Below are positions 38,612 to 42,011 of a DNA stretch of 64,000 nucleotides, one piece after another. The stretch is taken from contig OZ287069.1 in the NCBI GenBank assembly GCA_965645245.1, positions 2,666,001 to 2,730,000 on the forward strand. The letters run 5' to 3'. A model generated the notes under the pieces. It saw nothing but the letters and a program-made list of their open reading frames with translations, did no database searches and had not been told where the DNA came from. Positions within the stretch are counted from its first letter, which is position 1, and every line of letters begins with the position of its first letter. The position numbers were made by a program, and so were the translations under genes. This DNA comes from Massalongia carnosa (Eukaryota).

Positions 38612-40058
38612 TGCGAAGTCGGCGAGATGCATGATCCTGCACGCCCTCCCTCCACAGCTATTTCACCTAACGACTCACGGACTCTCTTCCTCCCCCATCT
38701 GTACTCTGTATCATACGGCTTACCTAGGTTTTATGCCAGGTAGAAATCGATGGAGAGCTGAATGTACCTCAGGACTACCACTTGCCTTATCCTGGCTATC
38801 TGAGAATGAACATGAAAATGAAAACCTCTAATTTAAGAAACGCTTTTGAACGAACCGTGTTCGCTTGTATCCCCTCCCCCTCTTTTTTTTGTTTCCAAGA
38901 TGAAGAGATAGAGATGAGAGTTCAGGCCCAGAAGAACGTACGCAAGATCTTTGGCGTCTAGCTTCCCGATTGAATAAAGAGAAGGCATTCGCCTTACCTT
39001 ATACACATTGTAGCAAAGTTTGCAGTTTTGAAATGGTTGAGATGGCGTTCTGCATCTATGTCTGCAACCTATCTTTTCTTCAACAACCGTTACGAAGAAA
39101 GCCCAGTTACGCTTTCGGGTGGCCTTTGGCATATTTGTAATCAAGGGGTGCGAAGTCTGAGTAATATCATTTACACACAGTACCAGTCTCAAAGGGACCG
39201 ACCCCGATTCTTATCCGTTTTCGAAAGCTTGTCTCTAACCTTCCGATCTTCCAACTTGTCGTCAAAGACAGATACTTTGGCTTTTTGATGCGCAGGAACA
39301 AGTTTTTCTTCGGGCTGTGTTACATGCCGGCCGGGCTTGGCAAAGCTTTTGCACCAGCATCCTTTTATGCGTCGAGCGAGAGGAATCGCCCAAACAGCTT
39401 TAACTAAAACAACATTGAAGACGATCGATCAAATAAAGAAGCGTCGGATCCGTCCAGGTAACATAAAGTATGTCATGAACAAAACCCTACCTATGTACCT
39501 TAAATCCCAACCACATCTTTCCATTCCTCGTATGTGTTCGCGTCGGCAAAAAACCCTCCCCCTCCTCTCCGTGTCCTCCTTTTCCGCATCCGGGATTTGA
39601 ACCTTTGTGTGGGGGAAAACCACGTCCGACGAAATGTTGATGTGCGCAACCCTAGTTAGCGGACATCGAGCAGTTTTCTGGAATCCTCTTCTCTTCTCTC
39701 CTCTCTCTGCCTTTCCCTATCTTGATGTTCAGCATTGCCACTACTATCCCCCCCCCTTGCAAGTATCCAAATATACGTACATACATACCTAGATATTCCC
39801 CTGAGTCTTATTTCATCTATCTATAGTTAGTTACCTTTTGTTGAATAGGTCTATGACTATGGCTATATGACTATGTAAAGATAGGGGCCTGTATGACCAT
39901 GATGTTAAGGATGCAGAGTTGCTACGGAGTGCAGAGCAATCTGTTCCCTTTATATTGGTCACCTCTGCTAAGCGAGATGATAATAGTTTATCCGAGCCTC
40001 TATGCGATTAGATTAGATCTTATCTTATCTTATCTAGTTAATCTATCGGCTAGGCAAT

Positions 40059-41386
40059 CACGCGGGGGACAAAAAAAAAACTACACCAAAATTTAACCGG
40101 GCTCAACTCCCCACCAAAACACAAGCAATTTACATACGATTTTGATGGGATAATTATCATTATTATGAATTCTAAACATATCGAGACTCCTACCAAAGCT
40201 AAAATTCAGGGAGCCGTTGAATTTTGCGAAAAGCAAGGCATTTCTTATCAAAAAGAGGATGTTTTTCGCACATTTGATGTGGAACGTACGAGGGGCTATG
40301 CATACCTGCGTGAAGGAGCCTCATCACGCCGTCATCATAATAATTCCGATGTTTCTGAAGCTCGTGGGCGTCACAAAATTGTTATGCCTAAATTGATTAG
40401 AGAAATGGAACGGCTATTGGAAGAAGAAGGTATGGAGGCGCGCGCTCTTACATGGGAGCAATTGGGCTTCGAAGTAGGCCTAGACTGCAGTGGCAAAACC
40501 ATTCAACGAATCATGGGCACCATGGATTATCACAAATGCATTGCGTGCAGAAAGGGATGGGTGAACGAGAAGACAAGAAAGCTTCGTATGAAGTGGTCAG
40601 ATGCTATGCTTTCTAGATATCCAAATGCAGAAGACTGGAAACAAGTTCGATTTAGTGACGAAGTGCACTTTGGATGGGGACCTCAGGGCAAATTACGCAT
40701 CATACGAAGATTAGGTGAACGTTATTGTCATGATTGTATTCAAGAAGCAGATGAACCAGACGAGGCCGTCAAGAAGAGACATCACTGTTGGGCTGCTGCA
40801 GGTCATGACTTCAAGTCAGATATCTACTTTTACAGAGTTCCTGGAAACTCCAATGGAAAGATGAGTCAACGAGTCTATATCGACTCTATATTGGAGCCTA
40901 TTGTGAAGCCCTGGATTGAAGCAAAACACGATTTCGTCTTAGAAGAAGACGGTGATTCTGGACATGGACCAGGCAAATCAAACATTGTACGCACTTGGAA
41001 GCAGAACAACGATCTGAAGCACTATTTCAACTGTCCATGTTCACCTGATTTGGCCCCCATAGAAAATTGCTGGCAGGCCCCGAAGCAATATTTAAAAAAA
41101 TATCCTCATTGGGATGATGATACGACCAAGGGGCTAATTTATGAGGGGTGGGCGAACGTTTCCCAGGCATTTATCAATGAACGGGTGTCTACTATGCCAG
41201 ATAGATTGAGAGCTGTTTTGGATGGTGAGGGTAAAATGACTGGTTATTGAATAGATTGAATGAATTGGATGACTGGTTGTTGAAATGGTGATTATCCCAT
41301 CAAAATTGTATGGAAATTGCTTGTGTTTTGGTGGGGGGTTGAACCCGGTTAAATTTTGGTGTAGTTTTTTTTTTGTCCCCCGCGTG
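40059..41386 (+). mobile_element. Apparently intact Tc1/mariner-superfamily DNA transposon (1328 bp, 103-bp TIRs) flanked by 5-bp direct repeat GCAAT
   Basis: TIRs 40059-40161 and 41284-41386 begin CACGCGGGGGACAAAAAAAAAACTACACC and differ at 6 positions. GCAAT at 40054-40058 and 41387-41391. Confidence 0.95.
40165..41250 (+). CDS. Tc1-like DD37E transposase (361 aa, intronless, uninterrupted)
   Basis: VRFSDEVHF, CWAAAG, YIDSILEP, VLEEDGDSGH, SPDLAPIENCW. 37 residues lie between the second D and E. C-terminal TMPDRLRAVLDGEGKMTGY. Confidence 0.93.
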   Translation: MNSKHIETPTKAKIQGAVEFCEKQGISYQKEDVFRTFDVERTRGYAYLREGASSRRHHNNSDVSEARGRHKIVMPKLIREMERLLEEEGMEARALTWEQLGFEVGLDCSGKTIQRIMGTMDYHKCIACRKGWVNEKTRKLRMKWSDAMLSRYPNAEDWKQVRFSDEVHFGWGPQGKLRIIRRLGERYCHDCIQEADEPDEAVKKRHHCWAAAGHDFKSDIYFYRVPGNSNGKMSQRVYIDSILEPIVKPWIEAKHDFVLEEDGDSGHGPGKSNIVRTWKQNNDLKHYFNCPCSPDLAPIENCWQAPKQYLKKYPHWDDDTTKGLIYEGWANVSQAFINERVSTMPDRLRAVLDGEGKMTGY

Positions 41387-42011
41387 GCAATGCTGGTAGA
41401 AGTTGAACATTCAACACCTTTCCCCAACCGCTAGACTTCCTTATGATATGGTACGTACGGTATGTATATATATTCGCCCCCCAAAACGAAAACAACCAAT
41501 GCATCCTGTAAAATCGCATGAATGATAGATTTCACTCTCACTCTTGTTGAGCCTACCTTCCTTGCCAAGCTAGCAACGCTCCCCTCCTGGAAAGCAGACA
41601 TGTGACTAGATTCCTTGTCTCCCCTCTCCCGCTAAACAGCCACCGGATTAATTAAGCTAGGGCTAAGCGGGAACTATTTTTGGGGGGGGAGGGGGGAGGG
41701 CGGGGGTAGAGAAGGGGGGTGGACCCTATGATCGAAAGGCTTCGAAGAGCTGCCCCTTGCGTGATCGATTCCTGTCACTGGCTAGTTCATAGCCAGAGAG
41801 CTACGGCAATGGAACCAGACGGTGACGTAACGTGATGAATGCGCATTTAAATCATATAGAAGCGCCTACAAAAGACCCATATGTAAAAGTCCTTACCCAC
41901 GACCAAACGTACCCGACGATACAGCTTGGAGTCTACCGGAGTAGCTTCTTGTTCTTATACATAGCCACCCAGTGCAATCCTCTTCCTCCAATCTCACAAT
42001 ATCCTTCCCCC

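Follow-up and report, generated by a model that had tools for sequence, protein, structure and literature searches.

Duplication of a TA dinucleotide is treated as a defining trait of the IS630/Tc1/mariner (ITm) transposons, and Mos1 gives it a structural explanation: as set out in passages of PMC5481204, the Mos1 transposase makes a 2-bp stagger strictly at TA, bends the target by ~147 degrees, and traps the flipped adenines with W159, R186, F187, and K190. Among the groups closest to the element considered here, impala and TRT are given as DD37E in an excerpt of PMC7325037, and TRT is described as duplicating TA at its target site (target-site duplication, TSD) in an excerpt of PMC5630946. 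There is a precedent for another TSD length in Zator/ISAzo13, an ITm-related lineage with a 3-bp TSD (excerpt of PMC10045372). Here, we analyze a stretch of 64,000 nucleotides from Massalongia carnosa (contig OZ287069.1, positions 2,666,001 to 2,730,000; the window), which carries a full-length Tc1-like DNA transposon of 1328 bp at 40059..41386 on the forward strand, flanked by a 5-bp direct repeat and not by TA. Very probably, it is an autonomous transposon that moved recently by cut and paste and belongs to a large clade of ascomycete elements, itself derived from Tc1-like ones; its own Asp-Asp-Glu (DDE) transposase would make the TSD.

The direct repeat, GCAAT, abuts both transposon ends (40054..40058 on the left and 41387..41391 on the right, both on the forward strand), and TA is found at neither, just as the preliminary description of this DNA reported. 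The ends themselves are terminal inverted repeats (TIRs) of 103 bp. In the TIR alignment, the left one, which starts CACGCGGGGGAC and continues with an A-tract, spans 40059..40161 on the forward strand, and the right one, 94% complementary to it, spans 41284..41386 on the reverse strand. Between them, a stop-free open reading frame (ORF; 40165..41250, forward strand) encodes 361 amino acids and is recognized as a transposase from its translation, Pfam, AlphaFold2, and Foldseek. The preliminary description was also right about an intact ORF with Tc1-type motifs (FSDE, EEDGDSGH, and SPDLAPIENCW). With the homolog alignment, the catalytic triad falls on forward-strand codons for D165 (40657..40659, in FSDEVH), D262 (40948..40950, in EEDGDSGH, where Sleeping Beauty has its second Asp in the alignment), and E300 (41062..41064, in PIEN, 37 residues past D262), which makes it DD37E.

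Duplications, empty sites, and target preference

How general is the 5-bp repeat? A search of the genome (G000; 52 Mb, 25 contigs) found at least 31 full-length copies of the element's own family, 97-100% identical, a lower bound since 40 of 279 candidates were scored. In all 30 of the full-length copies that were fetched, the same termini are bordered by a perfect direct repeat of 5 bp, where chance would produce one in about 1 in 1000 per locus, and none of the 30 has TA. The preliminary model implied that other copies should be flanked by other 5-mers, and tabulating the flanks gives 27 distinct 5-mers around the 30 copies, with GCAAT at the window locus only (L026 and L027 have both 20-nt flanks in common and may be one insertion). 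Among further two-ended copies of the family, three of four have the perfect repeat and L330 does not. The model likewise expected a single GCAAT at an empty site, and the junction has exactly this in 16 of 19 paralogous loci of the long terminal repeat (LTR) into which the element is inserted; the other 3 were unmatched by the anchor. The 5-bp repeat is a genuine target-site duplication.

The host sequence is a solo LTR (39839..41416, no strand assigned; 245 bp minus the insert, with TG...CA ends) that is not part of the transposon and belongs to an abundant family, with 414 candidates in the genome. Short repeats with 5-bp TSDs are taken as possible solo LTRs in a passage of PMC2851567, and this LTR carries a 5-bp duplication of its own, CCTTT, at 39834-39838 and 41417-41421. 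One could therefore suspect that the LTR, or else the assembly, is the source of the 5-bp repeat around the transposon, but the LTR duplication differs in both sequence and coordinates, the many distinct 5-mers and the single GCAAT of the empty paralogs speak against it, and the same pattern recurs in unrelated metagenome assemblies (below). We regard such an artefact as having a negligible chance of being correct. A contig from run X4 (sample labelled lichen metagenome) joins 39832 to 41416, lacking both LTR and transposon, so the insertion site is polymorphic; an orthologous site missing the transposon alone was not found among the contigs of the other samples compared. Another element of the clade, L075, sits in a paralog of the same LTR, at a site matching approximately window positions 39957-39961.

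The full ORF is kept in 22 of the 30 copies, and 26 of them are within 4 substitutions of the majority sequence, which indicates that the burst of own-family copies is recent. The near-identical TIRs and the open ORF had been read in the preliminary description as recent activity, and it is as recent spread that this reading holds.

The same description proposed a relaxed target choice, and here the sites point to a choice that is changed and not just relaxed. We compared 53 unique sites, symmetrised to 106 sides, many of them within repeats and thus not fully independent. Their consensus is palindromic, T-A-N-[S S W S S]-N-T-A. T is found at -3 on 69 sides and A at -2 on 68, while C never occurs at -2, and a flanking TA is present on 43 of 106 sides compared with a background of 5.6% (binomial p 5e-26). 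Within the core, which comprises 44 distinct 5-mers, positions 1, 2, 4, and 5 are 73% G+C and the center is A or T in 39 of 53 sites. TA on both sides occurs in 4 of 53 sites only, below the expectation under independence (Fisher p 0.010), as if one good TA half-site were enough. At the window locus the preferred TA, at -3/-2 from the duplication, stands on the left side only (40051..40052, forward strand).

Related families, TA-duplicating relatives, and descent

A protein search of G000 gave 672 candidates and 150 scored matches, and 60 of the more distant loci, which were fetched, form 11 further clusters at 85% nucleotide identity. With a strict anchor on the ends, 42 of the 60 are two-ended, and 28 of these have a perfect 5-bp repeat. 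Of the rest, 4 depart from a perfect repeat by a single mismatch, 3 add a CA or TG to the 5 bp, 2 have a 4-bp repeat, and 5 have none; TA was found at none of the 42. A looser end anchor gave 25 perfect repeats in 46 loci. One terminal pattern has 311 matches in the genome, compared with 0 for a reversed control. From metagenome contigs, 80 loci were kept out of 321 confirmed, of which 52 lacked both ends by the anchor, 3 were duplicates, and 1 was without flank, leaving 24 to be scored. Sixteen of these have a perfect 5-bp repeat, 1 has one mismatch, 7 have none, and again there is no TA.

The termini are less constant than the repeat. CAC had been taken as a marker of the element, and the clade families of G000 do have CAC termini, but metagenome members begin CACGCG, CACGGG, CAAGCG, CAAGCT, CTCGCG, or CAAGG, with CAA or CTC in many of them, and a TA-duplicating family of the same genome (L289-L291) begins CAC as well. 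No repeat was found at L169 and L173, which belong with L166 to an early-branching lineage with CAAGG termini and lie on short contigs. Variable termini also bear on the idea that the element is moved in trans by an unrelated transposase with a 5-bp stagger (Transib- or CMC-like), the Tc1-like ORF being cargo. Transib elements have a GC-rich 5-bp TSD and CAC termini, and the element recalls them in both respects. Nevertheless, the TSD stays at 5 bp while the termini vary (CAC, CAA, or CTC), the ORF is intact and its triad conserved across at least 12 divergent families, and the TIR resembles that of the TA sister family, in which the GGGTGACA core of several clade families recurs. Transib is also reported absent from fungi in an excerpt of PMC5751038. 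Altogether, mobilization in trans is very unlikely.

The named homologs in the protein search all come from filamentous ascomycetes, with Pyrenophora, Rutstroemia, Bimuria, Clathrospora, Ophiobolus, Macroventuria, Botrytis, Colletotrichum, Drechslerella, and Xylariales represented; the Pyrenophora and Rutstroemia transposases carry the public annotation 'HMG box protein'. A profile search returned 470 cluster representatives at E values up to 1e-30, not all of which need be clade members. A prokaryotic or viral source was rejected, as prokaryote genomes gave only 8 weak matches (25-39% identity) and viral contigs gave 0.

Individual loci add detail. L063 and L064 are inverted copies 10 kb apart (G000:C12, ~909000-921300) whose duplications are exchanged, which implies an inversion between them and means that some TSD failures are rearrangements. 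Beside one of the two lies L339, an element of another family, with the same 5-mer repeated. Two non-coding elements resembling miniature inverted-repeat transposable elements, L324 (C3:1511115-1511374, 260 bp) and L325 (C3:1886719-1886980, 262 bp), have clade termini and perfect 5-bp duplications. Five loci (L069, L086, L104, L334, and L342, in its outer element) show two additional bases, CA on the left or TG on the right, between the perfect TIR and the duplication. Tc1 excision leaves a 2-nt donor overhang, and the extra dinucleotide hints at the retention of such a Tc1-like overhang; slippage at CAC during gap fill fits equally. Excision footprints in G000 (a 5-mer, CA or TG, and the same 5-mer) showed no excess over other spacers in a scan that was underpowered, and with a TA flank there were 7 CA/TG cases compared with 2-9 for other spacers.

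The same genome also holds Tc1-like families that duplicate TA: it is present at the TIR ends of 16 of 20 other DDE_3 loci, and further families do likewise. These families share genome and repair system with the 5-bp clade, which argues against an enzyme that keeps the 2-bp stagger and leaves the 5-bp duplication to later host repair, through unwinding or fill-in of a distorted target. Slight variation in duplication length, in the 4-bp cases, would suit that explanation, as would the extra CA or TG at five loci if it points to repair events. Yet the target preference is symmetric about the 5-bp core, and the duplication is exactly 5 bp in all 30 young copies, and we consider host repair improbable. 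We are confident instead, as far as sequence can tell, that the element's own transposase makes a 5-bp stagger, of which the TSD is the trace.

Of the relatives whose TSD is known, the nearest is the L285 family (copies L299-L323), at 28% identity, with a DD41E triad and a similar TIR; more generally, the long alignments show only 23-28% identity between the element's transposase and Tc1-like proteins from TA-duplicating families of this genome. Ten of the 25 L285-family loci are two-ended, 5 with TA duplicated, 2 with TT/AA duplicated, and 3 mismatched, so a loosening of target specificity may have come ahead of the change in stagger. L300, L301, and L308 are noted for TT/AA or near-5-bp flanks.

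Our tree covers 55 proteins over 244 columns, with a single distant IS630-like protein from G000 as its root. A clade of 42 rows takes in every row labelled 5-bp and contains no TA row (support 1.0 by FastTree and 99.9 by the Shimodaira-Hasegawa-like approximate likelihood ratio test, SH-aLRT), in which the TSD is not known for 24 of the 42 rows and L166, with a 7-bp repeat, is counted as a 5-bp row. The group that unites this clade with L285, one bacterial match, and two proteins whose TSD is not known has support of 0.991 (FastTree) and 93.1 (SH-aLRT), and among the Tc1-like controls of G000 the clade groups with the TA families L285 and L251. On this phylogeny, the clade appears to descend among TA-duplicating Tc1-like elements. 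The root was drawn from L221-L250, the top 30 DDE_3 matches of the genome, which are larger IS630-like elements; several exceed 2.5 kb, their transposase being split or interrupted by an intron, and carry a further ORF, convergent and of unknown kind, and no TIRs were found within 1.5 kb of them.

The transposase and a candidate mechanism

The protein has an N-terminal helical DNA-binding region, a linker with a CxxC motif, and a DDE_3 catalytic domain. In Pfam, DDE_3 scores above its cut-off and HTH_Tnp_Tc3_2 below its curated cut-off. Forty of 41 homologs match DDE_3, and the D-E spacing, 37 in the window protein, is 37-43 in 36 of the 41 (5 were not parsed). Sleeping Beauty (SB100X) is the sole sequence match in the PDB. 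An AlphaFold2 model from the 41-row alignment has a mean predicted local distance difference test score (pLDDT) of 79.8, and for this predicted structure the best 15 Foldseek ranks are Mos1, Sleeping Beauty, and SETMAR. As in ITm elements, then, a DDE/D transposase of Tc1/mariner fold is encoded by a single ORF between TIRs, in elements of ~1.3-2.4 kb. The earlier proposal, that this is a fungal ITm lineage whose duplication is 5 bp long and not TA, is upheld by the 30 own copies, the related families, the fold, and the tree.

Two CxxC motifs, in the linker (125-128) and in the clamp loop (188-191), are found in 35 and 34 of 41 homologs, respectively. The pair is common to the clade, L251, and L285 but is not seen in other Tc1-like controls, and it is a possible zinc site. 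As the cause of the wider stagger it was rejected as insufficient, since L251 and L285 duplicate TA.

How could such an enzyme make a 5-bp TSD? Staggered strand transfer followed by gap fill is established DDE chemistry. The element's own transposase would join the two transposon ends to the target strands at phosphates 5 bp apart, and gap repair would then duplicate the 5 bp. Most probably, strand transfer went from a 2-bp to a 5-bp stagger. Residue changes may have done away with the adenine trap, so that a target both wider and less distorted would span the two active sites, with a flexible TA step read 2-3 bp outside one cut. That the enzyme dropped the Mos1-type bend-flip-trap of a central TA, and now reads a GC-rich core plus an outside TA step, is a proposal to which we give the same weight as to its contrary.

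Residues that might be responsible emerge from a comparison of 18 clade rows (L166 included) with 8 TA rows. The Mos1 W159 position is His (H168) in 18/18 clade rows versus 0/8 TA rows. A linker Pro present in 8/8 TA rows is missing in the clade, where the next residue is Trp in 16/18 rows, so that G/T/S131-W132 stands in place of Pro plus a hydrophobic residue or Pro. At the clamp-loop end, the clade has a longer acidic stretch and no conserved basic-aromatic pair. A Glu-Glu pair (E260-E261) precedes the second Asp in all 18 clade rows, which also have Asn for Trp at position 289, followed by C/A/T for Pro at 290; position 297 is S/A in the clade for the Asn of TA rows. P247 and K248 of Sleeping Beauty correspond in the alignment to S265 and G266, which hardly vary within the clade. 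According to a passage of PMC8934666, H187, P247, and K248 of Sleeping Beauty act on target DNA and shape target choice, and it is with these residues, or with W159 of Mos1, that the clamp-loop end, the H168 region, S265, and G266 are aligned. We infer as candidate determinants H168, the linker at 131-132, the acidic clamp-loop end, E260-E261, S265-G266, N289-C290, and S/A297.

Several observations weigh against this account. The stem of the clade is long (0.61 and 0.44 substitutions per site), and most of the residue differences may therefore be unrelated to the stagger. The clamp loop (174-193) has pLDDT <50 in the predicted model, and the basic-aromatic clamp-loop motif is missing also from L287 and L290, which duplicate TA. 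The stagger is not absolute, given 4-bp duplications at L076, L103, and L326 (two in one family), and the early-branching metagenome element L166, with CAAGG termini, has a 7-bp repeat at its true termini, so that at the base of the clade the TSD may differ from 5 bp. At L308, an old copy of the L285 family, the flanks agree at 4 of 5 bases. Finally, the tree supports the clade among Tc1-like controls from G000 with an IS630-like root, and so delivers that part of the phylogeny envisaged in the preliminary description; the named Tc1, impala, TRT, and Zator were left out of it.

If the account is true, segment swaps with a TA relative in the same genome could map the parts of a DDE enzyme that set the stagger, and a Sleeping Beauty-class vector free of the need for TA could result. 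A young, high-copy lineage that changed stagger and target and kept the fold would offer a direct test of stagger length in DDE transposases and integrases. It would also be a natural template for retargeting, where engineering of Sleeping Beauty changed targeting only modestly (passage of PMC8934666). For annotation, TA-based searches would miss the elements of the clade, and their 260-bp non-coding derivatives would land in other superfamilies.

Comparison with described systems

We found no account of a 5-bp TSD in Tc1-like elements in the open-access full-text literature, a scope that included passages of PMC11544213, PMC4188875, PMC3441728, PMC5576322, PMC2817418, and PMC4112212 and had Repbase, Dfam, and most subscription papers outside it. 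Literature passages on discoglosse (bioRxiv 10.64898/2025.12.02.690432 and PMC6660238) yielded no TSD data. It is a serious possibility, if somewhat less than an even one, that Repbase, Dfam, a species library, or a subscription paper already lists the clade with its 5-bp TSD, which bears on novelty only. The clade is present in well-annotated genomes (Pyrenophora, Botrytis, and Colletotrichum), and curators record TSDs. Moreover, the Repbase authors say, in an excerpt of PMC10045372, that ITm elements make TA TSDs 'in general', supplements of fungal transposable-element surveys could hold a note of a 5-bp TSD, and some named fungal Tc1-like elements, such as discoglosse, stand outside the comparison. 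Conversely, apart from the silence of the open-access texts, the proteins of the clade are annotated as hypothetical, as generic transposases, or as 'HMG box protein', and 4 clade peptide motifs were missing from six non-FASTA supplements of a Tc1/mariner survey (PMC7325037, seen in part), a weak test.

In anatomy, the element resembles Tc1-like transposons and Sleeping Beauty: ~1.3 kb with one ORF and TIRs, HTH_Tnp_Tc3_2 and DDE_3 domains, and an SPDL-x-PIE motif. It differs from them in its variable 5-bp TSD, in a GC-rich core with TA outside, and in termini that are CAC, CAA, or CTC; the Tc1 family has DD34E, whereas the window protein is DD37E and thus lacks the 34-residue spacing. The DD37E spacing, though variable in the clade, agrees with impala, TRT, and ITmD37E, from which the element is separated by the TSD, with TA at 0/30 own, 0/42 related, and 0/24 metagenome loci. 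With its Tc1/mariner anatomy and fold, the element nonetheless fails the TA test that defines the ITm group, and we therefore do not assign it to Tc1, impala, or TRT. Zator is set apart by its described TSD, of 3 bp there versus 5 bp here.

Mos1 (PDB 3HOT, 4U7B, and 5HOO) provides the best whole-length structural matches to the predicted model (E 1e-11 to 3e-9), but the clade has His at the W159 position and no conserved basic-aromatic pair at the end of the clamp loop. The L285 family shares both CxxC motifs, an EDG-type motif at the second Asp, and a similar TIR, and differs in keeping the linker Pro, a short clamp loop, and a Trp-Pro-Pro motif. Proteins like P0253 and P0256, with a short clamp loop and a Trp-Pro motif, would on these grounds be expected to duplicate TA.

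Transib and RAG-like elements share the GC-rich 5-bp TSD, as well as the CAC termini of many clade members, whereas the element has a 361-aa transposase, and termini not fixed to CAC. By domains and fold, the element is not a Transib or RAG-like one: none of the 41 homologs has a RAG1 domain in Pfam, no Transib or RAG chain is among the Foldseek matches listed, and the transposase is not RAG1-core-like. CAC ends are missing from some clade members and present in a family outside it, so the Transib likeness is convergent. We see an even chance that the clade represents an undescribed family-level ITm branch, widespread in filamentous ascomycetes, in which a 2-bp stagger at TA gave way to one of 5 bp with a GC-rich core, in convergence on the outcome of Transib and RAG.

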